Shown here: piece by piece, positions 6,688 to 19,482 of the stretch
Layout of the letters: each line of letters starts with the position of its first letter
How positions within the stretch are numbered: position 1 is the first letter of the stretch
DNA from: Acidimicrobiia bacterium
GTDB taxonomy: Bacteria; Actinomycetota; Acidimicrobiia; Spongiisociales; ZC4RG35
Reading direction: 5' to 3'
Assembly (NCBI GenBank): GCA_965215185.1
Contig: OZ244034.1
Location: forward strand, 1,439,569 to 1,503,568
DNA: 64,000 nucleotides
The notes under the pieces: model-generated
Told to the model about the DNA's origin: nothing
What the model saw: the letters and a program-made list of their open reading frames with translations, nothing else
Databases searched by the model: none
Translations under genes and position numbers: made by a program

Positions 6688-7446
6688 GTGTCTTGCCCGG
6701 CAAAGAGTTCCCAGTCTCTTGGTCAGCGTCTTGGCGCTGGCCCCCTCCGGCAAGAGGTCGAATCTTTGGCAAACAAAAACCCTCCCACCCTTCACATACC
6801 CACGGTGTTCGTTGAAGGCCTCAGGGTCTTTTTCGAGCATCAGACAGCCCTTCTGGTCCGGTCCCTTTATCTGTTAGCCGTGCCGTCTGTGGTCCTGGTG
6901 GTGTGGCAAGCCAGCGAAGACACCCGCGACAGCAATCCTCTCTTCTTCTGGGTTTACCTGTTGATATGGTTCGGGAGCTTTGCCGTGGCCGGATATGCGG
7001 GCTGGCCGCTCGCCCGCACCGTCCTGGCAGCCGCTTCACCAGAAGCCGATCCCAGCCTCCACGGTGACGATTGGTGGGTGCGAGACGGATTCGTGCGAGC
7101 AACTGCGGTTTTCTCCTTCACTGTGGCGGTGGGAACGGTTTTCCTGGTGATTCCGGGGCTGATGGTGCTGATGATCTACACGTTTTATCCCTTCTTGATC
7201 GTGGAACGCAAGGCCAAAGGCTTTTCGGCGCTAGCCGCAAGCTCCGAGCTCACCACCGGGAACCGCATGCGACTTCTTGGTTTGGTGCTGATCCTCACGC
7301 TGCTTTTTGTCCCCGCCGGGTGGTTGTTCTATCTGTGGGGTCCCGGCACGACGGGAATCGTCGCCATGTGGGCGTTGGGCGCTCCGGCACTGTCGGTGGC
7401 GGCGGCAACCATGGCATCGGCCTACCGGACGATCCTTAACACTTAA
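6688..7446 (+). CDS. Hypothetical membrane protein
   Basis: Several hydrophobic helices; true start probably downstream of 6688. Confidence 0.4.
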   Translation: MSCPAKSSQSLGQRLGAGPLRQEVESLANKNPPTLHIPTVFVEGLRVFFEHQTALLVRSLYLLAVPSVVLVVWQASEDTRDSNPLFFWVYLLIWFGSFAVAGYAGWPLARTVLAAASPEADPSLHGDDWWVRDGFVRATAVFSFTVAVGTVFLVIPGLMVLMIYTFYPFLIVERKAKGFSALAASSELTTGNRMRLLGLVLILTLLFVPAGWLFYLWGPGTTGIVAMWALGAPALSVAAATMASAYRTILNT

Positions 7447-7530
7447 ATCAATTCAGCGCATTAGTTGCGCTAACCGGAGTCCATCCTCTATGGTTATGAG
7501 TGCATGCACCCTTATTTAGAAGGAGGAAAG

Positions 7531-8625
7531 ATGCTCGCACGTCTACAGAAGTTTGGTGGATTTATGGCGGGTATGGTCATTCCCAACATTGGGGCGTTTA
7601 TCGCCTGGGGACTGATCACCGCCTTTTTCATTCCCACCGGATGGACTCCCAATGACACTATTTTGGAGCTCGTAGGTCCCATCATTGTCTTCCTGCTGCC
7701 AATCCTTATTGGGTACACAGGCGGCAAGATGGTTTACGGTCACCGGGGAGGCGTAATGGGATCCCTCGCCACCATGGGAATCATCATCGGAGCCGACTTC
7801 GTCTTGGAGAGCGGCGCCACCGGCGACCCACCCCAGTTCCTGGGCGCGATGGTGGTCGGTCCGGCGGCCGCCTGGCTGATCATGAAACTCGACGAAGCCA
7901 TGGAAAACAAGATCCCGGTCGGATTCGAGATGCTGTACAACAACTTCTCGGCTGGCATCCTCGGCGCCATCCTGGCCATCATCGGCCAATGGATTATGGG
8001 GCCGATCATGGCTGGTATCGCCAATTTCTTCGGAAACCTGGTGGACTGGATCACCGACGCCGGAATCCTGCCTCTGGCTGACATACCCATTGAAGTTGGA
8101 AAGGTGTTGTTCCTGAACAATGCCATAAACCACGGAATCTTGGGCCCATTGGGCGTGGATGAGGCTGCCGAAACCGGTCGCTCCATCTATTTCCTGCTGG
8201 AGACTAACCCCGGGCCCGGTCTTGGTTTGCTGTTGGCCTACTGGTTCGCCGGTAAGGGTCTGGCCAAGCTGTCCGCCCCCGGCGCCATTGTGATTCACTT
8301 CTTCGGTGGGATCCATGAGATCTATTTCCCTTATATCCTCATGCATCCAATCATGATTCTGTCGGTCTGGGCCGGCGGCATCCTCGCCGACATCATCTTC
8401 GTGATATTCGATGCGGGATTAACTGCCACGCCTTCACCAGGCTCCATCTTCGCCTACCTGGCAGTGATGCCCAAGGGGCAACACTTCCCGGTCTTACTAG
8501 GAGTGGTAGCCGCAGCGGCCGCCGCCTTCGTAGTAGGAACCCTGCTATTGCGGATCTCCCCCGTCAAGGAGCAGGAGGGCATAGAAGACATGATCGGTAC
8601 TATGCCAGGTGTCGCCACCGGCTAG
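7531..8625 (+). CDS. mtlA: PTS mannitol-specific EIIC component
   Basis: FGGFMAGMVIPNIGAFIAWGLITAFFIPTGW, LFLNNAINHGIL and GGIHEIYFPY match E. coli MtlA EIIC almost residue for residue; RBS aggagg precedes ATG 7531. Confidence 0.85.
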   Translation: MLARLQKFGGFMAGMVIPNIGAFIAWGLITAFFIPTGWTPNDTILELVGPIIVFLLPILIGYTGGKMVYGHRGGVMGSLATMGIIIGADFVLESGATGDPPQFLGAMVVGPAAAWLIMKLDEAMENKIPVGFEMLYNNFSAGILGAILAIIGQWIMGPIMAGIANFFGNLVDWITDAGILPLADIPIEVGKVLFLNNAINHGILGPLGVDEAAETGRSIYFLLETNPGPGLGLLLAYWFAGKGLAKLSAPGAIVIHFFGGIHEIYFPYILMHPIMILSVWAGGILADIIFVIFDAGLTATPSPGSIFAYLAVMPKGQHFPVLLGVVAAAAAAFVVGTLLLRISPVKEQEGIEDMIGTMPGVATG

Positions 8626-8708
8626 AACCAAACCAACACTCGTATAAAGTGGGGAGAGTCTCTTACCGAGACTCTCCCCACTTCCTTAACCGAAAGGCCT
8701 TCATAGAC

Positions 8709-9032
8709 ATGAGTCCAGTAACAAAACCCGCGGCGGAGGTCAACTGGATTGTTTTGGCTTGCGAAGCCGGGATGGGTTCCAGCCTCATGGTCACCAACGC
8801 CCTCAAGAAGAAAATCAAAAAGGCCAAACTCGATATAAAGGTCAGCCATGCCCCGGTGCATGGCATACCGGACGCCGCCGATGTGGTGGTTACTCACACC
8901 GGTCTCGCCACCCGTGTCAAGCAGGTCGCCCCCCAAGCCGCCGTGGTCCCCTTCAGAACCTTCTTGAATGACCCCGCCCTGACCCAGTTGGTGAATGCGC
9001 TCTCCACCGGCCAGGATGTTGTAGGGATCTGA
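8709..9032 (+). CDS. PTS mannitol EIIB domain protein (separate polypeptide)
   Basis: IVLACEAGMGSSLM matches the MtlA EIIB phosphocysteine motif (IVACDAGMGSSAM). Confidence 0.75.
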   Translation: MSPVTKPAAEVNWIVLACEAGMGSSLMVTNALKKKIKKAKLDIKVSHAPVHGIPDAADVVVTHTGLATRVKQVAPQAAVVPFRTFLNDPALTQLVNALSTGQDVVGI

Positions 9033-9036
9033 GCAG

Positions 9037-9486
9037 GTGATGGCAGAGAGGTCAGTCACCTCGGTGGAAGCCATCACCCTGGGCGAGCAGGGGCTAACCC
9101 AAAAAGAGGCCATCGATCGAGTATCGGGCATGCTGTTCGACCTGGGAGCGGTAGAGGCTGGCTACGGAGCGTCAATGATGGCCCGCGAAGAGGTGATCTC
9201 CACCTACCTGGGCAACGGGATCGCTCTCCCCCACTGCACCTACGAAGACAAAGACCTGATCAAACGCACCGCCCTGGTTCTGGCTCAGTACCCCGCCGGC
9301 ATCCCTTGGGATGATGAGGACGACATAGCTCATCTGGTGTTCGGACTGGCGGCGGTGGGCGAAGAGCATCTGGCGGTGATGTCTCATCTAGCTGAAGTGT
9401 TGGACGACGAGGATCTGTGCGATCGGCTGGCGGTGGCAACCGACGAAAACTATGTCCGGGAGACCCTGGCCGCCCCTCCGGAATGA
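9037..9486 (+). CDS. mtlF: PTS mannitol EIIA component
   Basis: GNGIALPHCT phosphohistidine motif of EIIA-Mtl; 149 aa. Confidence 0.75.
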   Translation: MMAERSVTSVEAITLGEQGLTQKEAIDRVSGMLFDLGAVEAGYGASMMAREEVISTYLGNGIALPHCTYEDKDLIKRTALVLAQYPAGIPWDDEDDIAHLVFGLAAVGEEHLAVMSHLAEVLDDEDLCDRLAVATDENYVRETLAAPPE

Positions 9487-10604
9487 CCAGACGGCGGGCG
9501 GCGGTATTCGGCGCCGGGAACATTGGACGGGGGCTGCTGGGGTGGTTGTTCGGCCGGGCAGGATGGGAAGTGGTTTTCGTAGATGTCTCTTCCGACTTGG
9601 TGGACCTCATAAACCAGGAGGGCTCCTACCAGGTATTTGAGGTGGGCACCGAGAGCCGATCAACCCAGTGGATTAGGGGCGTGAGCGCAGTTAACGGCAT
9701 GTGCCCAGAAGCCGTTTCCGCCACTGCTGCGGCGGAGGTGGTGTGCACTGCGGTGGGAGCCGGAATACTGGGTCGGGTGGCGCCCACCATCGCCGCCGCT
9801 CTTTCTATGAGCACCAGCCAGATTCGCAACGTGTTGGCCTGCGAAAACGCCGATCCCAACAGCGCCCTGCTGCTGCGGCATGTGGAGGGCCTGATGGGCA
9901 AGCGCCCGGCCGGTGTGGGGTTCCCCGAGACGCTGGTCGACCGAATGGTGCCCGGCTCCACCGCAGCAGGGTTGCAAGTGGAGGTAGAGGCGCGTTTCGA
10001 TTTCAAAGTGGCCAGAGAGGATTGGGTGGGAGACGATCCAGGCGTGGTGGGAGTGGAGTTGGTTGACAGCTTGAGGCTCTTCCGGAAGAGAAAGCTATGG
10101 CTGGTGAACGGACTCCATGCCGCCGGAGCCTTCCTGGGTTGGCATGCGGGGCACGAAACGGTGGCCGAAGCGGTCTCCGATCCCGCTATCCGGCCGCGAT
10201 TGGAACAAATAGCGGTCACAATGGCGGCGGTGCTCTTCGCGCAGTTGGAGGATTTGACCCAGGAGGAGTTGGCCGAGTACGGACTGTTCAACCTCCGACG
10301 GTTCGAGGACACCGCTTTGGTGGATCCCATCCGCCGAGTGGCGCGCAATCCCCTCCGCAAACTTGGCCCGACCGAGCGTCTGGTGGGTCCCGCCCGGGAA
10401 GCCGCGCGACATGGTCTTGCGGCTGACGCTCTGTGCGACGCCATTGTGGCCGGGCTCTCCCTCGATGACCAGCGGGTGGACGGGATGCAAGAGTTGCGAG
10501 ACGCGTTGCGCTCCGGGGGGTGGCAGTCGGTGGTGGGGCTGGGCGAAGCGGACCACAAACTGCTGGAGATGCTGGAAAAACGTTTGGAGACCACGAAAAG
10601 CTGA
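9483..10604 (+). CDS. mtlD: Mannitol-1-phosphate 5-dehydrogenase
   Basis: N-terminal AVFGAGNIGRGLLG Rossmann motif and downstream LACEN, NGLHA segments typical of MtlD; start placed at M 9483. Confidence 0.85.
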   Translation: MTRRRAAVFGAGNIGRGLLGWLFGRAGWEVVFVDVSSDLVDLINQEGSYQVFEVGTESRSTQWIRGVSAVNGMCPEAVSATAAAEVVCTAVGAGILGRVAPTIAAALSMSTSQIRNVLACENADPNSALLLRHVEGLMGKRPAGVGFPETLVDRMVPGSTAAGLQVEVEARFDFKVAREDWVGDDPGVVGVELVDSLRLFRKRKLWLVNGLHAAGAFLGWHAGHETVAEAVSDPAIRPRLEQIAVTMAAVLFAQLEDLTQEELAEYGLFNLRRFEDTALVDPIRRVARNPLRKLGPTERLVGPAREAARHGLAADALCDAIVAGLSLDDQRVDGMQELRDALRSGGWQSVVGLGEADHKLLEMLEKRLETTKS

Positions 10605-10658
10605 GTTTTGGGCTTATATGATCGGGAGCAGCAAGTAATCCACAACGCAGGTGAAACT

Positions 10659-10958
10659 ATGGCCCGCATGACCCGCGACCAACTCCAACAGGCGATGATC
10701 GATAAGTTCTCTGCTGAGCCGGATCCCTCGGGTCAAGCCGACCTGATCTGCTCCAAGGGTTCTTTGGGCATCGCCGCCGACCACAAGCAGATCAAAAAGA
10801 CGGTGAAACGCCTAAGACCTCTGATGACCTATCGGTTCCTGGTCATTAACCGAGGCGACCTGTTCGCGGCCAGCCCCGCCACCATCGGCACCAAAATCGG
10901 CATCCTCGACGCCAACGGATCGCTCCTGAAAGCAGCCGACCTCCCCCGCAAACGCTAA
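10659..10958 (+). CDS. Hypothetical small protein
   Basis: ORF immediately downstream of mtlD; no recognisable motif. Confidence 0.3.
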   Translation: MARMTRDQLQQAMIDKFSAEPDPSGQADLICSKGSLGIAADHKQIKKTVKRLRPLMTYRFLVINRGDLFAASPATIGTKIGILDANGSLLKAADLPRKR

Positions 10959-11210
10959 GAAGCCACCGATAGCGGAGGGCGGGTCTCAGGTAATACCTGA
11001 TTGGAGCGTCCGGAGATCCAATCGGGCAGTTTGCCCCTTTCGGCCTGGACATCGGCGGACTGACCACCTCGATTTTCCAAGTGTGGAGCACCTGGTAGGC
11101 ATAGCTCACGGTGATCGAGTTATGCGGTGGACGGTTTCCAAAGATCTGCTTGAGCTTGCATCAGCCAGCGGAGGAACTCACGCTCCGGCCCCCGGTTAGC
11201 ATCACCAAGG

Positions 11211-12044
11211 TTGATGAACACTGATACCAGGGGTGTAGCAGAATCCCTATCCAGACTGGCTGCGAACTCCGACTTGAAAAGGGCTTTGGAAGCGGCTCGC
11301 GCGGGAGCCGAGGTAGTGGCTGGCGGACTGGGGCAGCAGATAGACGTTTCTTACAAGGGCGATGCCGACCCGGTTACCGAGGTCGACCATTGCTCCGAAC
11401 AGGCAATCCTGGAAGTGTTGGCCCGACACTTCCCCGATGACCGGGTGGTGCGGGAAGAGGGAGGAGGAGAGCTTCCCGACGGGGGGCGGGTGTGGTTGGT
11501 GGATCCTTTAGACGGCACCACCAATTTCGTTCACGGGTTCCCCTGGGCGGGGGTGTCGGTAGCTCTTTGGATCGATAATGTCCCCTCGGTGGGGGTGGTG
11601 ATTGATGTCAATACCGGAGACGAGTACACGGCGGTGGCCGGAGGAGGCGCCCGACGAAACGGATCGCCCATCGGGGTGAGCGGCACGGCGGATCTGGGAG
11701 AAGCGTTGATCGTCACCGGGTTCCCTTACGACAGAGCCGAGCGAATCGAAATCTGTGACAGCCGGTTCCGGCGGGTGCTTGCCGCGTCGCAGGGCACCCG
11801 GCGGCTGGGGGCGGCGTCGCTCGATATGTGCATGGTGGCCTGCGGGAAGCTGGACGGTTACTGGGAAGAAGACCTGTTGCCCTGGGACTTGGGAGCGGGT
11901 GTGCTGATAGTCCAGGAGGCCGGCGGGACGGTCACCAACTTCTCCGGTCAGCCGGTCGATCCTGCCGGGTTATTCGTTGTGGCCAGCAATGGGGCGATCC
12001 ACGGCCGGTTCTTGGAAACGCTTCGAGGCGAGTCCATTCCCTGA
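11211..12044 (+). CDS. Inositol monophosphatase family protein
   Basis: WLVDPLDGTTNFVHGFP metal-binding IMPase motif. Confidence 0.8.
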   Translation: MMNTDTRGVAESLSRLAANSDLKRALEAARAGAEVVAGGLGQQIDVSYKGDADPVTEVDHCSEQAILEVLARHFPDDRVVREEGGGELPDGGRVWLVDPLDGTTNFVHGFPWAGVSVALWIDNVPSVGVVIDVNTGDEYTAVAGGGARRNGSPIGVSGTADLGEALIVTGFPYDRAERIEICDSRFRRVLAASQGTRRLGAASLDMCMVACGKLDGYWEEDLLPWDLGAGVLIVQEAGGTVTNFSGQPVDPAGLFVVASNGAIHGRFLETLRGESIP

Positions 12045-13333
12045 TGCTTCACCGGCGCCTTCAAGACCTCGAAAACAGCGGCGGCAAGATCCGGGTGGGA
12101 CTGGTGGGCGCCGGGCAGATGGGAGAGGGGCTGGCGGTGGTCTTGGAGCAAATGTCCGGCATGGAAGCCAGTGTGGTGGTGGATGCCATGCCGGGCCGGG
12201 CAATGGAAGCGTTGCGGTCAGCAGGAGTGCCCCTTTCCGATGTGGTGGAGACCGACGACCCGGACCGGGCGGTCTCGGCTCTCTCCGACGGGCGGCGGGT
12301 GGCCACTTCCAACGTTCGGTTGGCTTGGTGTGAGCCGATGGATGTCGCGGTGGAGGCGACCGGGATTCCCGAAGTGGGCGCTTGGGTGGCGCGTGGCGCC
12401 ATCGAAGCCGGAAAACACGTTCTTCAGATGAACGTGGAGACCGACGCCACGGTGGGATACGTCCTGCGCCAAATGGCGGAGGAGGCCGGGGTGGTCTACA
12501 CCCTGACCGGAGGTGACGAGCCGGGGGCGATAATGGAGTTGTACGACTTCGTGGCCAGTCTGGGCTTGGAAGTGGTGAGCGCTGGCAAGGGCAAGAACAA
12601 CCGGCTGGATCGAACGGCCACACCCGAGACGGTGGCAGAGCTTGCCCGAAAGCGACGTATGAACCCAAAAATGCTCGCCTCGTTCGTGGACGGCACCAAA
12701 ACCATGGTGGAGATGACCTCACTGGCCAACGGGATCGGTTTCGTCCCTGACGTGCGGGGCATGCACGGTCCGGAAGTCAGTGTCGAGACCATCGCATCCA
12801 CCTACATCCCGGTATCCGACGGCGGGGTGCTTTCCGGGCGGCGCCGGGTGGACTACGGACGGGGAATCGCCCCGGGAGTCTTCGTGGTGTTCACCACCGA
12901 CCACCCCAAGCTGATCCGCGACCTCGGCTATCTCTCTATGGGACCGGGGCCCTACTACGCCCTCTACCGTCCCTATCACCTGGCCAACATCGAGACTCCC
13001 ATCTCCATCGCCCGGGCGGTGCTGTTGGCCGAGACCACCCTGGCCACCGATCATCCTCCCACCGCAGAAACGGTTGCCTTCGCCAAACGACATCTAGCGG
13101 TTGGAGAGACCATCGCTGATCTGGGTGGCTACCGTGTTTATGGCATGATCGAAAGGGCAAAGACCGCGGCCGCCGAGCGGTTCTTGCCGGTGGGCCTGGC
13201 GCCGGGCGCGGTAGTTGTCTCTGCGGTGAGGGCCGGTGACCCTCTTACCTACCGTGATGTGGAATTGGACGAATCTTCGAATATCGTTTCACTGCGCCGC
13301 CTCCAGGATTCACTCACCGAGGTGCTGTCATGA
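12044..13333 (+). CDS. NAD(P)-binding oxidoreductase with C-terminal SAF-like domain (COG4091-like)
   Basis: GLVGAGQMG Rossmann motif at the N-terminus; start ATG overlaps the upstream stop (TGATG). Confidence 0.5.
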   Translation: MLHRRLQDLENSGGKIRVGLVGAGQMGEGLAVVLEQMSGMEASVVVDAMPGRAMEALRSAGVPLSDVVETDDPDRAVSALSDGRRVATSNVRLAWCEPMDVAVEATGIPEVGAWVARGAIEAGKHVLQMNVETDATVGYVLRQMAEEAGVVYTLTGGDEPGAIMELYDFVASLGLEVVSAGKGKNNRLDRTATPETVAELARKRRMNPKMLASFVDGTKTMVEMTSLANGIGFVPDVRGMHGPEVSVETIASTYIPVSDGGVLSGRRRVDYGRGIAPGVFVVFTTDHPKLIRDLGYLSMGPGPYYALYRPYHLANIETPISIARAVLLAETTLATDHPPTAETVAFAKRHLAVGETIADLGGYRVYGMIERAKTAAAERFLPVGLAPGAVVVSAVRAGDPLTYRDVELDESSNIVSLRRLQDSLTEVLS

Positions 13334-15312
13334 TTGAGCGGACCGGAATCGGGGCTTCGCCGGGAATCGCCATCGGTCCCGTCTATCTGCATTCCCCAAG
13401 CGTCCCCGATGTCACTGCCCGCCGGGTGGATAACCCCGACGCCGAGGTTGAAAAACTCATCCGCAGCGAGGAGATCGTCCGGGAGAGGCTGATTGGTCTC
13501 CAGCAACTGCACGGCGAGGAATCCGAAGAGGCGGAAGTCATCGGAGCGCACCTTCTCTTGTTGGAAGACCCCGAGTTCACCGGCGAAATGCGCATGCTCA
13601 TCGAGTCGGACTCGCTGTGCGCCGAAGCGGCCGCTTTGCGGGTCACCGAGGAGTCGGCGGTCATGCTGGAATCTTTGGAGGACGAATACCTGGCGGCCCG
13701 CGCTGCCGATGTCCGCGATGTGGGCACGCAGCTTCTGAAATCCATTCTGGGGCTTCCCCTGGAGATCTGGGATCATTTGAAGGTCCCCTCCGTGCTGGTG
13801 GCGTCGGACTTCTTCCCCTCCGAGACGGCCACCATTCCACCGGGGATGGCGCTCGGGCTGTGCACCGAGGAGGGAAGCGCCACCTCTCACATCGCAGTGT
13901 TTGCCCGAGGCATGGCGCTGCCCGCGGTGGTAGGGGTTGACCTGCCGGACCTGGAGCCCGGAGCTTTGGTGGCTTTCGACGGCGACACGGGGGCAGTCTA
14001 TATCGAGCCTACCCAGGAGGTGATCGACCAGCTCCTAAGTCAACAGGAAGCGCAGCGGCGGAAAAGGGAGGGTGCGGCTGTGCGCGCTCACGAACCGGCC
14101 GTTACCAGGGACGGGACACGGATCGAGGTGGCCGCCAATATCGGCTCGGACGAAGACACCACCCGGGCAGTGGGGCTGGGCGCCGAGGGGGTGGGGCTGT
14201 TCCGCACCGAGTTCTTGTTCCTCGACAGGACCCGTCCTATCTCTGAGGAGGAGCAGTTCGAGGCCTACCGGTCGGTGCTGTCGGCCTTCGGGGACCAATT
14301 GGTGGTGGTGCGTACCCTGGATGTTGGGGGAGACAAACAGGTTCCGGGCATCGAGATAGGAGCAGAACTCAACCCTTTCCTGGGTTTGCGGGGGATCCGA
14401 CTGACCCTGGCCCGCCCCGAGATGATGCACGAACAGTTGCGGGCGCTGCTCCGAGCGGGAACCTCTGGACGGCTGGGGATAATGGCGCCCATGGTTTCGG
14501 GAAGAGTCGAACTAATGGCTTTTAGAGCAGCCCTGAAGGAGGCCGAACGGTCATTGGCCGCCGACGGCTTGGAGCACGCCACCGACTATCAGGTGGGGAT
14601 CATGATCGAGATACCCTCGGCAGCCTTGCTCGCCTCCCGGCTAGCCGCCCACATCGATTTCTTCTCCATCGGGACCAATGACCTCACCCAGTACACACTG
14701 GCGGTTGACCGAACCAACCGGGAAGTCGCCGATCTGGCTAATCCTTTCGATCCCGCCGTGCTCCGTCTTATCGCCGAAACCACCTCGGCGGCGGCGTCCC
14801 ACCAACGCTGGGTAGGGGTTTGCGGGGCCATGGCCGGCGATCCCCTGGCGGTCCCCGTGCTGATCGGGTTGGGGGTCACCGAGTTGTCGGTAGCCATTCC
14901 CTCCGTTCCCATCATCAAGGAAAGGATCCGCTCCCTGGACATGGACAGTTGTCGAAAAGTGGCGGCCCAATGCCTGGAGGCCGCCGACGCAGCAGAGGTG
15001 CGAGAACTGTTGGCCGGGATGTGGGCGACCTCTCGCCGGGCTCATTTACGGGCGGTGGTCCGGGGACGGGTACATGGCGTTGGGTACCGGTGGGCGGTAG
15101 TCACCCAAGCCAGGGATCTAAGGATTTCCGGGCGTGTCTCCAACCAGGAGGACGGTACCGTGCTGGTGGTGGCCGAAGGCCGCAGAGGGCAGCTGGAAGA
15201 GTTTGCCGACTGGCTCTCTCGGGGACCCAGCCACGCCGTGGTCACCAGGGTGGAGTTGGAGTGGTCCCAGCCTCGGGGCCATTGGCAGGACTTCGCCATA
15301 GACCACCTCTGA
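13330..15312 (+). CDS. ptsI: PTS Enzyme I fused to a C-terminal acylphosphatase domain
   Basis: EI motifs GSATSHIAVFARGMALPAVVG and GTNDLTQYTLAVDR; the C-terminal 90 aa carry both acylphosphatase signatures (VVRGRVHGVGYRW and GRVSNQEDGTVLVVAEG). Confidence 0.85.
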   Translation: MIERTGIGASPGIAIGPVYLHSPSVPDVTARRVDNPDAEVEKLIRSEEIVRERLIGLQQLHGEESEEAEVIGAHLLLLEDPEFTGEMRMLIESDSLCAEAAALRVTEESAVMLESLEDEYLAARAADVRDVGTQLLKSILGLPLEIWDHLKVPSVLVASDFFPSETATIPPGMALGLCTEEGSATSHIAVFARGMALPAVVGVDLPDLEPGALVAFDGDTGAVYIEPTQEVIDQLLSQQEAQRRKREGAAVRAHEPAVTRDGTRIEVAANIGSDEDTTRAVGLGAEGVGLFRTEFLFLDRTRPISEEEQFEAYRSVLSAFGDQLVVVRTLDVGGDKQVPGIEIGAELNPFLGLRGIRLTLARPEMMHEQLRALLRAGTSGRLGIMAPMVSGRVELMAFRAALKEAERSLAADGLEHATDYQVGIMIEIPSAALLASRLAAHIDFFSIGTNDLTQYTLAVDRTNREVADLANPFDPAVLRLIAETTSAAASHQRWVGVCGAMAGDPLAVPVLIGLGVTELSVAIPSVPIIKERIRSLDMDSCRKVAAQCLEAADAAEVRELLAGMWATSRRAHLRAVVRGRVHGVGYRWAVVTQARDLRISGRVSNQEDGTVLVVAEGRRGQLEEFADWLSRGPSHAVVTRVELEWSQPRGHWQDFAIDHL

Positions 15313-15363
15313 GGCTCGTGAGGTCCCGATAAGGGTTGTTGTTTCCTGACGAAAGCAGGGGAC

Positions 15364-16467
15364 TCAATCCGGTGCAATGGGGAGTTTCAACCGTTTGGAC
15401 ATTCGCGGTGTTCGGGTGCCGGTTCTGGTCAGCAATACATTTGCTGCGGCCACGGTCAGGGCTCCTGCCACCAGGAGATCGAGCCGCGCAACCGTGATTT
15501 CGGTAAACATACCCAACCATATGAGGCCCACCACCGGCGACACGTAGATGAGGGCATTGATCCCCAGATCGGGTGTTATCAGCACGGCCCTGCGGGAAAG
15601 CAACGCCCCGGGGACCAAGCTGACCCCGACAGCCACCGACCAAGCGACGGACTCCAGTGTGATTCGGCCTCCACCGGCAAACCCGATTAACACGTTGGGA
15701 ATGACGGAGATCAGTGCCGAAACGGTGTATCCGAACAACAGACACGCGAACTCCAAACTGTACCTGTCCATGCGGATGTCGGCTTTGCGGGTGATTTCAG
15801 TTGCGAGACTGTCACCAAATGGAAAGCCCGCACCTACGGTGCAGGCTATGAGAAGGGCTGATATGAGAGCCAGGATCATCCCGAATACCCTGGCGGCCAG
15901 TGTCGCCTCGACGGGTTGCAGACCAAGAGTTCCCACCACCACCGCCGCCATTCCCAGGAATGCCAAGCCCAAACCTGTCCACGAGAGGGCGGTGAATCGC
16001 CGGTACCTCTTTCGGTTGGTTCGGTCCCATCTGGAAAGCCCCAGTACGAAGAAGACGGGCCAGGTATAGTGCAACATCGCCACTGTGGCGGTCTCCACAT
16101 ACTGGGTGGCCCAAGGGAAAAACGCGAACGCGAACCGTCCCACCACCATCAGCAGCAGCATTCCCAACAGGTCCCATCTGCGAACGCCATCGGTCTTCAA
16201 CCCCGCGACCCGTCTGAAGAGCACCCTTCGAATGGCGGGATCAGCAAAGATCGGCCTGTAAAACAGTAACGAGAAACCTCCCAGACCCAGTGCCGTTCCC
16301 ATCCACACTCCGGCGTTGTAAAGGAAGGGATGATTGTCTGCGAGGGTCAACTCCACAAAGACAGCATTGGTGGAGAAGAACATCACCGCGCCCGCCATCA
16401 ACGCCAACGCCCGGCGATGGCTACTAGTCACTGCCGGACTACGGTCTATTGCGGTTCCTTTGCGCAA
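15364..16467 (-). CDS. Integral membrane protein, possibly DMT/EamA-like transporter
   Basis: 367 aa, about 10 hydrophobic helices. Confidence 0.45.
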   Translation of the reverse strand: MRKGTAIDRSPAVTSSHRRALALMAGAVMFFSTNAVFVELTLADNHPFLYNAGVWMGTALGLGGFSLLFYRPIFADPAIRRVLFRRVAGLKTDGVRRWDLLGMLLLMVVGRFAFAFFPWATQYVETATVAMLHYTWPVFFVLGLSRWDRTNRKRYRRFTALSWTGLGLAFLGMAAVVVGTLGLQPVEATLAARVFGMILALISALLIACTVGAGFPFGDSLATEITRKADIRMDRYSLEFACLLFGYTVSALISVIPNVLIGFAGGGRITLESVAWSVAVGVSLVPGALLSRRAVLITPDLGINALIYVSPVVGLIWLGMFTEITVARLDLLVAGALTVAAANVLLTRTGTRTPRMSKRLKLPIAPD

Positions 16468-16565
16468 ACCCGGTCAGGACTTCTTTCCTTCCAGGGGTTC
16501 GGCTTGGAGCACAATGGCGGGGGCAGGTTTCCTGGGGAGGCGCCGCCACCTTGTGAATTAGCGTC

Positions 16566-16820
16566 TCAACCCTCCACGGAAAGAAGATCGGTAAAATCGG
16601 AGATGACTTCGGCAGCGTCGTCGCCATCCACTTCGACCGAGATGGTGGTTCCCTGAGTGGCGCCAAGTTTGAGTATCCCGAGCATGCTTTTGGCGTTCCC
16701 GGTCTTGTCGTTGGCGGTTACTGTGATATTCGAAGAAGAGGCCTTGGCGCGCTTGACGAATTCGGCCGCGGGCCGGGCATGAAGTCCAGCTGGGTTGGTG
16801 ATGGTGATCTCTATTTGCAT
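16566..16820 (-). CDS. ptsH: Phosphocarrier protein HPr
   Basis: MQIEITITNPAGLHARPAAEFV... matches HPr including the active-site His15 context GLHARPA; 84 aa. Confidence 0.8.
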   Translation of the reverse strand: MQIEITITNPAGLHARPAAEFVKRAKASSSNITVTANDKTGNAKSMLGILKLGATQGTTISVEVDGDDAAEVISDFTDLLSVEG

Positions 16821-16843
16821 CTCTTGTTCTCCAGCTGGGGCGT

Positions 16844-17671
16844 TCAACAAAAGCTTACCGAGACCGATCCCAGCCGGTCGAAGACTGCCCATACCGTATC
16901 TGCGGGTTTTACCGCAATTGCGGCGTGAAGAGCGCCGGTTAGGACGAAACTTCCCGCGGTGAGTTCCTCTCCGTATCGGGCCAACTCGTTGGCAAGCCAG
17001 GCCAACGCGGTGAAAGGACTGCCCATGCACGCCGCTCCCGCTCCGGTTCCGGCCAGGTCACCGTTGTGGTAAATGGCCATCCCGCACCACCGCAGATCAA
17101 AGTCGACCGGAACCACCCGGTCGCTCAACACCGCGGCTCTTGACGAACCCAGATCGGCAACCGTGTCCACCAGCTTGATACGCCAGTCCGCCACCCGGGA
17201 GTCGACCACCTCGATGGAGGCCACTGCCCCTTCCACCGCCCGAGAGGCGGCCAGGGCTGTTACGCCCGGCCCGCGCAACGTCTCTCCCACCATCAGTGTG
17301 ATCTCCGCCTCGGCCTTGGGGGCGATCGCCGAGTCGATGTCCACCCGTTCGCCGCTGTTGTGGGCCATGGTCGAGATCACCGGCGCATAGTCGGGCGTGT
17401 TCACTCCCAGCAGCTTTTGCATGGGCTCGGAGGTCAGCCCGAGTTTGTAGCCGATCAACTCTCCCCCAAGCCACGAAATGAGTTTCTCCGCGAACATCTT
17501 TTGGATGGCGTGAGCATCCTCCACTTCCAGGGTGGGGTCCATGTCGCTGAGCGGCTCGATCGGCACTCCACTGCGATATGAGTCGAACAGGATGTCTGCC
17601 CATCTATTCAGTACGCGCTTGTTCTTCATGGCCTTCACAAAGATAGCCAGCCACCGCATATGTCGAGGCAA
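16844..17671 (-). CDS. 2-keto-4-pentenoate hydratase / 2-oxohepta-3-ene-1,7-dioate hydratase family protein
   Basis: MhpD/HpaH-like layout (GYKLGLTS, ELARYGEEL, SFVLTG). Confidence 0.6.
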   Translation of the reverse strand: MPRHMRWLAIFVKAMKNKRVLNRWADILFDSYRSGVPIEPLSDMDPTLEVEDAHAIQKMFAEKLISWLGGELIGYKLGLTSEPMQKLLGVNTPDYAPVISTMAHNSGERVDIDSAIAPKAEAEITLMVGETLRGPGVTALAASRAVEGAVASIEVVDSRVADWRIKLVDTVADLGSSRAAVLSDRVVPVDFDLRWCGMAIYHNGDLAGTGAGAACMGSPFTALAWLANELARYGEELTAGSFVLTGALHAAIAVKPADTVWAVFDRLGSVSVSFC

Positions 17672-17697
17672 CCGCCAATCCTTTTCGTCGGGTAGCC

Positions 17698-18318
17698 TTG
17701 GCTGGTATGACCCGTTTGCTGTTGGTCCGTCATGCCCCGGTGGCCACCACCGGAAAGGTCCTGTACGGTCGAGAAAGAGGACACCACCTCACCAAAGAAG
17801 GAAAGACCGCCACCCGGCAACTTGCCCAACGCCTGGCGGGAGTCGACCTGCGGGCGGTCTACTGCTCACCCCTGGAAAGAACCATAGAAACCGCCACCCT
17901 ATTGGGAAAGCCCCATGAACTTGCACCCGTTGTCGAAGAACAGCTGATCGAAGTGGACTACGGAGAGTGGACGGGACAGGAACTGAAAACCTTGTACAAG
18001 CTGCCGGAGTGGAAAACGGTGGTTCATCAACCCTCCCGGATGCGCTTTCCCGGCGGCGAATCACTGGCAGAAGCCCAATTGCGAGGAACGAGGGCCTGCG
18101 AGAAACTGGTCGGTTTGCATCCGGACGGGGCGATAGCCGTCATCACTCACGCCGATATCATCCGTTTGGTGTTGGGGTTTTATCTGGGACAACCGCTTGA
18201 CCTTCTTTCCAGAATCACCGTGTCCCCCACCTCGGTTTCGGTGTTGAACATCTCCAAAGAGGGGGCGGTGACCGTGGTAGCGGTCAACTCCAACGGAGAT
18301 CCGGCCACGTGGCAATGA
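17698..18318 (+). CDS. Histidine phosphatase family protein (MSMEG_4193-type putative phosphomutase)
   Basis: LLLVRHAPV (RHG-type) motif near the N-terminus and ITHADIIRLV; sits beside DUF3090 and SCO1664 genes. Confidence 0.7.
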   Translation: MAGMTRLLLVRHAPVATTGKVLYGRERGHHLTKEGKTATRQLAQRLAGVDLRAVYCSPLERTIETATLLGKPHELAPVVEEQLIEVDYGEWTGQELKTLYKLPEWKTVVHQPSRMRFPGGESLAEAQLRGTRACEKLVGLHPDGAIAVITHADIIRLVLGFYLGQPLDLLSRITVSPTSVSVLNISKEGAVTVVAVNSNGDPATWQ

Positions 18319-18791
18319 ATAACATCGGGCCGGCAGAGCGGTTCTTGGTAGGCGCCATTGGACCGCCCGGCAAGCGCCGCTTCTATTTCCAGGTAGTGGC
18401 CGATGGCCAGCAGCATTCCATGCTGGCCGAAAAGCAGCAGGTGGAGGCTCTGGCCTCCCAGGGATGGCGCAGCCTGCAGCGTTCCGGGGTGTTGGTGGAC
18501 AACGGGGCGGTGGAAGCCATCCTGGGCACCGATCTGGAAATAGTCGATCCCGCCGGCAGTGAGGACTTTCGGGTGGGAACCATCAACGTCGGGATCCGAC
18601 CGTCGGGCCTTATGAACCTCTCCTTCGAGTCGGATCGAGATGACCAGGGACTGATGTTCATGGTGTCACCCGAGCAGTTCCGAGCCATGGTGGTGATCGC
18701 TCGCAAGTTGGTCAGAGCCGGACGGCCGATCTGTCCCTGGTGTCGACTGCCCAAGGACCCCGATGCTCATGAGTGTCCCGCCCGCAACTGA
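18309..18791 (+). CDS. DUF3090 family protein
   Basis: C-terminal CPWCRLPKDPDAHECPARN cysteine motif typical of the family; overlaps its neighbours. Confidence 0.6.
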   Translation: MAMNNIGPAERFLVGAIGPPGKRRFYFQVVADGQQHSMLAEKQQVEALASQGWRSLQRSGVLVDNGAVEAILGTDLEIVDPAGSEDFRVGTINVGIRPSGLMNLSFESDRDDQGLMFMVSPEQFRAMVVIARKLVRAGRPICPWCRLPKDPDAHECPARN

Positions 18792-19482
18792 ACATCAGAC
18801 CGACCGGCTGGTCATCTCCGATCTGGTGGGCAGGTTCAGGTCCGCCTCCAACGCCACGTTCCTTGGGCGAGATCCCGACGACGATCTTTGGGTCTACAAA
18901 CCGACCGCGGGAGTGCGCCAACTATGGGATTTTCCTGCTCACACCCTGACCAACCGGGAAATCATGGCCTATGAGGTGAGCACCTGGATGGAACTTGACC
19001 TGGTTCCCGAAACGGTGGAGGCCGAAGGGCCGTTGGGGTCAGGAGCAGCTCAGCGCTTTCTGGAACCTGATGTCGACTTTGACATTCGATTGTGGTTCGA
19101 AGACCAGATGCATCCTCGGCTATGGCCGGTGGCGGTGTTCGACCTGGTCGCCAATAACGCCGACCGAAAGCTCGGACACATGCTCAAGGAATCCAAAAGC
19201 GGACGCATCTTCGCTATCGATCATGGCCTCACCTTTCACACCCAGGACAAATTGCGGACCGTACTATGGGGCTTCGCCGGACATCCGATTCCCGACTCAT
19301 GCATGGAATCGGTATCCCGGCTGCGGGAAGCGCTGGTTGGGGAGATGGCGTTGCGGACCGCCGAGCTTCTCACCGAGATGGAAGCGGACGCCCTTCGCCG
19401 CCGAACCGAGAACCTTCTGGACGATCCCGTCCATCCCCACCCCCCGGTGGACCGCTCCGCCCTGCCCTGGCCCCTTTGGTGA
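18763..19482 (+). CDS. SCO1664 family protein (PI3/4-kinase-like fold)
   Basis: Third member of the conserved actinobacterial phosphatase/DUF3090/SCO1664 trio. Confidence 0.55.
   Translation: MLMSVPPATEHQTDRLVISDLVGRFRSASNATFLGRDPDDDLWVYKPTAGVRQLWDFPAHTLTNREIMAYEVSTWMELDLVPETVEAEGPLGSGAAQRFLEPDVDFDIRLWFEDQMHPRLWPVAVFDLVANNADRKLGHMLKESKSGRIFAIDHGLTFHTQDKLRTVLWGFAGHPIPDSCMESVSRLREALVGEMALRTAELLTEMEADALRRRTENLLDDPVHPHPPVDRSALPWPLW

Follow-up and report, generated by a model that had tools for sequence, protein, structure and literature searches.

In a 64,000-nt stretch of DNA from an uncultured Acidimicrobiia bacterium (contig OZ244034.1 of assembly GCA_965215185.1, positions 1,439,569 to 1,503,568 of the forward strand; the whole stretch is called the window below, and coordinates count from its first letter unless a locus is named), the ptsI gene, which encodes Enzyme I (EI) of the phosphoenolpyruvate (PEP)-dependent phosphotransferase system (PTS), is joined in frame to acyP, the gene for an acylphosphatase. 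The fusion is genuine and lineage-restricted, and it is no assembly artifact. We propose that ptsI and acyP were already adjacent, and probably translationally coupled, when they were joined, and that the fused form is near-neutral relative to the split form; to this reading we assign a probability of roughly 0.8. The fusion would accordingly be a modest evolutionary variant and not a new system.

The fused ptsI::acyP open reading frame (ORF; 13330..15312, + strand) encodes 660 amino acids plus a stop codon, and it does run on from EI through an acylphosphatase domain (Pfam E-value 1.9e-22), as had been claimed in an earlier note made from the letters of the window. The DNA from 14880 to 15420 contains neither a stop nor an ambiguity at the junction. 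Residues 1–564 (13330..15021, + strand) form the EI moiety, which matches in length and end point (…LLAGM) the 564-aa EI of split relatives—those in which ptsI and acyP are separate genes. The earlier note had let EI end at about residue 565; the exact end is Met564, and Trp565 (codon TGG, 15022..15024, + strand) occupies the position of the ptsI TGA stop in the split relatives. Residues 565–569 (W-A-T-S-R; 15022..15036, + strand) constitute a linker, as delimited by the junction alignment and an AlphaFold2 model, and alignment with split relatives places a 2-nt deletion within 15030..15039 (CTCTC^GCCGG, + strand), the gap falling between 15034 and 15035. The acylphosphatase domain itself (PF00708) covers residues 574–657 (15049..15300, + strand) on the basis of Pfam and a predicted beta-alpha-beta-beta-alpha-beta fold, so that linker and acylphosphatase together extend the protein by 96 residues beyond the EI C-terminal helix. 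In the AlphaFold2 model of the 660-aa protein, the mean predicted local distance difference test score (pLDDT) is 82.9, the EI C-terminal helix stops at residue 563, and linker residues 566–568 score below 50 (low confidence); the model suggests that the acylphosphatase is an autonomous domain on a short tether.

The same junction recurs well beyond the window. At 90% identity, the window's protein cluster holds 14 distinct sequence variants, drawn from ENA, NCBI, and Logan assemblies, all of them 659–660 aa long and on contigs of up to 3.1 Mb, and the junction is found again on an independent 782-nt contig (P0121). Fused proteins are also present in four further diverged lineages at 82–85% identity, namely P0002 (on a 2.9-Mb contig), P0003/P0147/P0148 (P0147 being NCBI record MCE2527456.1), P0004 (from a JGI metagenome), and P0299 (partly frameshifted), and the junction peptide W-[AT]-T-S-R-R-A is common to at least five diverged fused lineages. 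These records dispose of two doubts voiced in the earlier note, namely that a sequencing error might conceal a stop codon between the domains and that the fusion might be absent from all relatives. Among the fused lineages, the ratio of nonsynonymous to synonymous substitution rates (dN/dS) is 0.10–0.20 for the acyP codons (dS 0.6–1.6) and 0.07–0.10 for the EI codons; therefore, selection has long maintained the frame. It could still be argued that an indel error of 1 or 2 nt at the junction hides the stop of two genes that are really separate, since related long-read contigs do hold frameshifted genes (the oxidoreductase gene upstream of ptsI in locus L164, P0065, and P0299) and the majority of relatives are split. 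Such an error, however, would have to produce two changes (a TGA-to-TGG substitution and a 2-nt deletion) and not one homopolymer indel, to appear in 14 variants from independent assemblies as well as in NCBI and JGI records, and to leave 96 in-frame codons with a dN/dS of 0.10–0.20 between lineages that are 15% diverged. The argument is effectively refuted already, and we attach almost no probability to it.

The split relatives indicate how the fusion is likely to have arisen. About 60 clusters of close EI relatives (73–86% identity) consist of proteins of 563–567 aa without an extra domain, and the two nearest species-representative genomes are metagenome-assembled genomes labelled Acidimicrobiia. 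Most of the close relatives have a separate acyP of 95–99 aa directly after ptsI. The gene calls of L165, L168, L169, and L173 show a 4-nt overlap in which the GTG start of acyP lies on the TGA stop of ptsI (GTGA); the junction alignment reveals GTGA in L004 and L167 too, and L166 has a 2-nt spacer between the genes. We take the split arrangement with the 4-nt overlap to be the ancestral state. Compared with it, the fused genes carry two changes in a nine-locus junction alignment: TGA is replaced by TGG (Trp565), and 2 nt are deleted about 12 nt downstream, a deletion after which translation leaves the frame of ptsI and continues in that of acyP; the total span is 1985 nt where the genes are split and 1983 nt where they are fused. 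The linker is thus made up of a few read-through ptsI-frame codons followed by what was formerly the 5′ end of acyP. In the sister lineage L171, the genes are split without a GTG overlap start, acyP being called from an ATG 55 nt inside ptsI; since this split acyP is already of the fused-gene sequence type (RWAVVT…DWL.RGP), the fusion can be placed after the divergence of L171.

Other accounts of the junction were tried and rejected. An origin of the fusion through loss of one base, the A of a TAG stop, was overturned by the wider junction alignment. L004, where a tblastn match to residues 1–659 had suggested a fused gene, is split, tblastn having bridged two frames. As to programmed −1 frameshifting in the split relatives, the junction alignment contains no slippery heptamer before the stop. 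As a separate observation, the acyP ORF of L167 (L167:4192-4485) is intact in frame and is not called as a gene.

Once formed, the fusion has proved labile. L002, the sister of the fused L001 (EI dS 0.09), has the fused-type 2-nt deletion plus one extra A that creates a TAG stop (L002:7685-7984), and its acyP starts at a GTG 11 nt inside ptsI, the two genes overlapping by 11 nt. The acyP of L002 shows strong constraint when compared with that of L001 (dN/dS 0.02), and with three members in the cluster to which its 99-aa acyP belongs, the re-split is unlikely to be a one-off error. By these characters, L002 descends from a fused ancestor and was split again secondarily. A second form of lability is seen in L164 (fused) and L172/L173 (split), which are 95–100% identical over a stretch that begins 1.5 kb upstream and runs to ptsI nucleotide ~1540; past that point their identity is 0.60–0.71 over the 3′ end of ptsI and acyP, and beyond the breakpoint L164 is nearest to other fused lineages (0.73–0.82). 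The protein pair P0147/P0146 shows a corresponding switch in similarity near residue 525. This pattern indicates that the fused 3′ end has entered another genomic background by homologous recombination and, consequently, that fused and split alleles coexist in a population that is 95–100% identical upstream of the breakpoint.

The EI moiety has the domain order of PtsI according to Pfam, with an HPr-binding N-terminal domain (PEP-utilisers_N, PF05524; residues 5–124, 13342..13701), a mobile phospho-histidine domain (PEP-utilizers, PF00391; residues 153–221, 13786..13992), and a PEP-binding TIM-barrel domain (PEP-utilizers_C, PF02896; residues 250–537, 14077..14940), all on the + strand. It matches TIGR01417 (PTS_I_fam) with 511.1 bits against a cut-off of 341.7 over residues 5–561, and aligns with Escherichia coli EI (2KX9/2HWG) over residues 5–556 with an E-value of 1.6e-125, the His and Cys motifs being kept. 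His187 (13888–13890, + strand) lies in a TSHIAV motif aligned with TSHTSI of E. coli EI, and Cys498 (14821–14823, + strand) lies in GVCGAMAGD; neither residue varies among 37 aligned homologues, and their E. coli counterparts are the phosphorylatable His189 and the active-site Cys502. The EI-Ntr (PtsP) class does not fit, as Pfam detects no GAF domain and the score for NF008283 is 376 against a cut-off of 583. Judged by its hidden Markov model match, domain order, key residues, and neighborhood of HPr and Enzyme II (EII) genes, the EI half is predicted to be a PtsI.

The C-terminal moiety scores 79.7 bits with the Pfam Acylphosphatase model (E 1.9e-22; gathering cut-off 22.5), covering profile positions 2–85 of 85. 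It aligns with the acylphosphatase of Pyrococcus horikoshii (1V3Z/1W2I; E 4.9e-18), placing the catalytic residues at Arg587 (15088–15090, + strand) and Asn605 (15142–15144, + strand). In the AlphaFold2 model, the acylphosphatase module (residues 570–646) is composed of strands at 570–578, 600–605, 611–618, and 640–646 and helices at 583–596 and 619–631, with block-mean pLDDT values of 74–85. Among the NCBIfam acylphosphatase equivalogs (PRK144xx), the best match, NF011007, reaches 75–77 bits, below its cut-off of 100, as is to be expected for a distant lineage because these models are narrow and organism-derived. Taken together, the Pfam score, catalytic residues, and predicted fold identify the C-terminal half as a putative acylphosphatase.

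The two acylphosphatase signatures reported in the earlier note need a closer description. The peptides quoted there are present in the protein, and they are best called signature-like: the window sequences VRGRVHGVGYR and GRVSNQEDGTV match neither of the strict PROSITE patterns, taken as [LIV]-x-G-x-V-Q-G-V-x-[FM]-R and G-[FYW]-[AVC]-[KRQAM]-N-x(3)-G-x-V-x(5)-G, in a regular-expression search, a negative of little weight. The first motif (15067–15090) reads VHGVGYR in the window lineage and VQGVGFR in the other fused lineages and most acylphosphatases, and the second (15133–15144) reads G-R-V-S-N clade-wide, although in this family the Gly is usually followed by an aromatic residue.

Motifs of this kind might lead one to regard the acylphosphatase as a passenger: the fusion would have inactivated independent expression of acyP, leaving a non-functional C-terminal tail that is now being lost. 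The non-canonical first motif of the window lineage (VHGVGYR) fits such a decay, as does the faster evolution of acyP relative to EI (dN 0.15–0.21 vs. 0.06–0.09), and deeper lineages do exist without acyP. Yet the standalone acyP genes of split relatives evolve equally fast, and the fused domain is stop-free in five lineages, with a dN/dS of 0.10–0.20. It also keeps its catalytic Arg and Asn and is predicted with confidence to adopt an acylphosphatase fold. We therefore regard decay as very improbable. Both moieties retain their catalytic residues and, as the substitution ratios indicate, face purifying selection.

On the reading that we favor, that of a near-neutral joining of coupled genes, EI would follow its ordinary route, passing phosphoryl groups from PEP to His187 to HPr and feeding the neighboring mannitol-type EII, and would carry the acylphosphatase as an independent unit, flexibly attached through a short tether. 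Joining the genes would mainly fix a 1:1 co-expression that the overlap already provides and, compared with keeping them split, would be nearly neutral for selection; what the clade conserves is the coupling of ptsI and acyP, with fusion as one interchangeable way to encode it. We infer this near-neutrality from the coexistence of the two forms and from the reversal of the fusion. More speculatively, while the PTS is active the level of acetyl-phosphate or 1,3-bisphosphoglycerate may matter, and the acylphosphatase would serve to remove that acyl-phosphate, or else phosphoryl groups derived from acetate kinase. Hydrolysis of 1,3-bisphosphoglycerate could speed lower glycolysis towards PEP, and the substrates put forward in the earlier note (acetyl-phosphate, carbamoyl-phosphate, or a phospho-intermediate) are plausible ones for the family. 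The idea that the fusion itself is a functional novelty is not supported, however. Because most relatives are split with a 4-nt overlap, the fusion has been re-split at least once, and the alleles coexist, fusion would add little beyond the existing coupling; since fused and split forms occur side by side, the fusion itself is unlikely to be a new mechanism.

Selection for proximity offers a different explanation. Here, the acylphosphatase would be a functional partner of EI, and the fusion would have been selected to place it beside EI. The enzyme might prevent PEP-independent phosphorylation of EI by hydrolyzing its source, either acetyl-phosphate or an enzyme intermediate of the acyl-phosphate type; alternatively, it might drain phospho-EI or phospho-HPr as a safety valve. 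The former variant has a biochemical background, in that phosphoryl groups of acetyl-phosphate/acetate kinase reach EI, according to the citation of that work in PMC3475010 (Fox, Meadow & Roseman 1986). The conservation of a ptsI–acyP overlap or fusion throughout the upper clade speaks for an adaptive coupling, as does purifying selection on the fused frame over a dS of about 0.8–1.0. However, tethering is dispensable, since one population contains both kinds of allele and L002 has reversed the fusion, and L005 and L170 run the same PTS cluster without any acyP. Acylphosphatases, moreover, are not known to act on phosphohistidine, which also counts against an adaptive coupling. We consider it unlikely.

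It is similarly unlikely that the acylphosphatase is a dedicated partner of EI in this clade, the fusion serving as a 'Rosetta stone', and that it controls cross-talk between acyl-phosphates and the PTS. Such cross-talk would set acetyl-phosphate, the acetate kinase phospho-enzyme, or 1,3-bisphosphoglycerate against the phosphorylation state of the PTS or the supply of PEP, and, if real, it would give bacterial acylphosphatases their first defined physiological context. The clade-wide coupling of acyP to ptsI, fused in some lineages, is in any case a testable hint that an acylphosphatase serves the PTS or lower glycolysis.

Several points weigh against a near-neutral fusion of single origin as we have described it. 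The 72-kDa polypeptide, and the activity of either moiety, are deduced from the DNA. Internal initiation at Met564 could release a free acylphosphatase; within 20 nt upstream of the junction ATG there is no Shine-Dalgarno-like motif, the only candidate being a GAGG at −24, which is too far. A subtle advantage of the fusion is conceivable, given that the fused frame persists to a dS of about 0.8–1.0. The motif changes (Q to H and F to Y in the window lineage, and the clade-wide Arg) could alter substrate preference or activity. Finally, the case for a single origin is built on shared junction characters, and the EI tree taken by itself interleaves fused and split forms, an interleaving that we attribute to the recombination that moved the fused 3′ end.

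Whatever its selective value, the locus is a clean natural example of a 4-nt stop/start overlap becoming a gene fusion through two small mutations—a fusion that was undone by a single base in one lineage and spread between populations by recombination. It also matters for annotation: NCBI and JGI label the fused proteins simply as PtsI ('phosphoenolpyruvate--protein phosphotransferase'), and the extra domain is thus invisible in the deposited names.

Compared to canonical PtsI (E. coli EI, 2HWG/2KX9; TIGR01417), the window protein shares the three domains and their order, the His and Cys residues, and the presence of HPr and EII genes nearby; whereas canonical EI stops after its C-terminal helix, the window protein adds 96 residues. 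The split ptsI–acyP pair of sister Acidimicrobiia (L165, L168, L169, and L173; EI MCQ3802495.1) has in common with the window an operon encoding an inositol monophosphatase (IMPase)-family phosphatase, a DRL-type oxidoreductase, ptsI, and acyP, and its products are orthologues that are 81–86% (EI) and 59–78% (acyP) identical to the window moieties. The pair differs in encoding two polypeptides with a GTGA overlap, where the window has TGG and, downstream, 2 nt fewer. Standalone acylphosphatases (P. horikoshii 1W2I/1V3Z, E. coli YccX 2GV1, and Thermus thermophilus 1ULR) match the window domain in size, predicted fold, and the Arg and Asn residues; unlike them, the window domain is not free-standing, and it has H for Q, Y for F, and R in place of the aromatic residue before the Asn motif.

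HypF, the carbamoyltransferase of hydrogenase maturation, sets a precedent for an acylphosphatase fold inside a larger phosphoryl- or acyl-transfer enzyme; its N-terminal acylphosphatase-like domain is followed by zinc fingers and YrdC/Kae1-like domains. In the window protein, by contrast, the acylphosphatase is C-terminal to EI, and Pfam detects no zinc-finger, YrdC-like, or Kae1-like domains. EI for its part tolerates added domains, as in PtsP/EI-Ntr (GAF-EI) and the multiphosphoryl transfer proteins (EI-HPr-EIIA); these known fusions add GAF or PTS phosphocarrier domains, and the EI of the window adds an acylphosphatase. The earlier note was right that EI-acylphosphatase is not a standard architecture, PF02896 and PF00708 occurring together only in close relatives in our searches, and we found no description of a ptsI–acyP fusion or linkage in the literature.

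No protein of the same architecture was found outside the clade in searches that were not exhaustive. Metagenome and GTDB scans for the EI-acylphosphatase architecture returned almost only distant EI genes, and because fused EIs stand under unfused representatives in the 50%-clustered library, negatives on this architecture in other lineages are weak. A word-indexed query with the EI tail plus the acylphosphatase (residues 440–660) recovered only the close relatives P0121 and P0299, a weak result as it missed P0001–P0004, which are full-length fused proteins. One apparent distant fusion, on metagenome contig L088 (tblastn match to residue 639), was rejected: its EI stops after 571 aa, and the next gene encodes an unrelated short-chain dehydrogenase. 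A search of representative sequences with the acylphosphatase moiety listed 150 proteins, mostly standalone; the only long one was P0266 (497 aa), an unrelated protein with a Peptidase_MA_2 domain and a C-terminal acylphosphatase domain, which suggests that the acylphosphatase is a recurrent C-terminal fusion partner.

Upstream of the fused gene lie an IMPase-family sugar-phosphate phosphatase gene (11211..12044, + strand) and a gene for a DRL-type NAD-binding oxidoreductase with a SAF domain (12044..13333, + strand; 429 aa, as in the relatives), whose stop overlaps the start ATG of the fused ORF (ATGA). This order—IMPase, DRL oxidoreductase, ptsI, acyP—is conserved in the relatives, with HPr nearby on the opposite strand; in the window, the gene for the HPr phosphocarrier protein, the substrate of EI, lies at 16566..16823 on the − strand. 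The DRL gene and acyP co-vary, both being present in 13 close loci and neither in the deeper lineages L005 and L170, where the IMPase gene immediately precedes ptsI and HPr follows it; the two genes may have been gained or lost together. Further upstream, the + strand encodes mannitol-family PTS EIIC (7504–8625), EIIB (8649–9032), and EIIA (9037–9486), and a mannitol-1-phosphate dehydrogenase-like protein (9417–10604). With these mannitol-type EII genes and the dehydrogenase, the sugar-uptake cluster is complete, and the window EI is probably its general PTS enzyme. A promoter and terminator scan of 7000–17800 gave 0 promoter-like sites and terminator-like sites at chance level.

What lies upstream of the IMPase gene differs between genomes, being either the mannitol-type PTS plus dehydrogenase or McrBC-like or Eco57I/XamI restriction modules (flanks of L001, L002, L165, L168, L169, L172, and L173 compared with those of the window, 7504–10604, and of L003, L005, and L170). 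In L164, the DRL gene is broken into two ORFs (L164:1214-2504), and frameshifted EI or EI-acylphosphatase products, P0065 (536 aa) and P0299 (357 aa), come from 23-kb and 84-kb contigs; these broken genes are either indel errors of long-read metagenomes or real pseudogenes. Between acyP and HPr, a gene on the − strand (15364–16467) encodes a 367-aa multi-pass membrane protein that is retained in most relatives and has no significant family match, only a weak 7TMR-DISM_7TM match below threshold; in L167, a nucleotidyltransferase/HEPN pair (L167:4595-5433) stands downstream in place of the membrane protein of other loci. Beyond the PTS cluster, the + strand carries a conserved actinobacterial trio (17698–19482) encoding an MSMEG_4193-family phosphomutase, a TIGR03847 protein, and an SCO1664-family protein.

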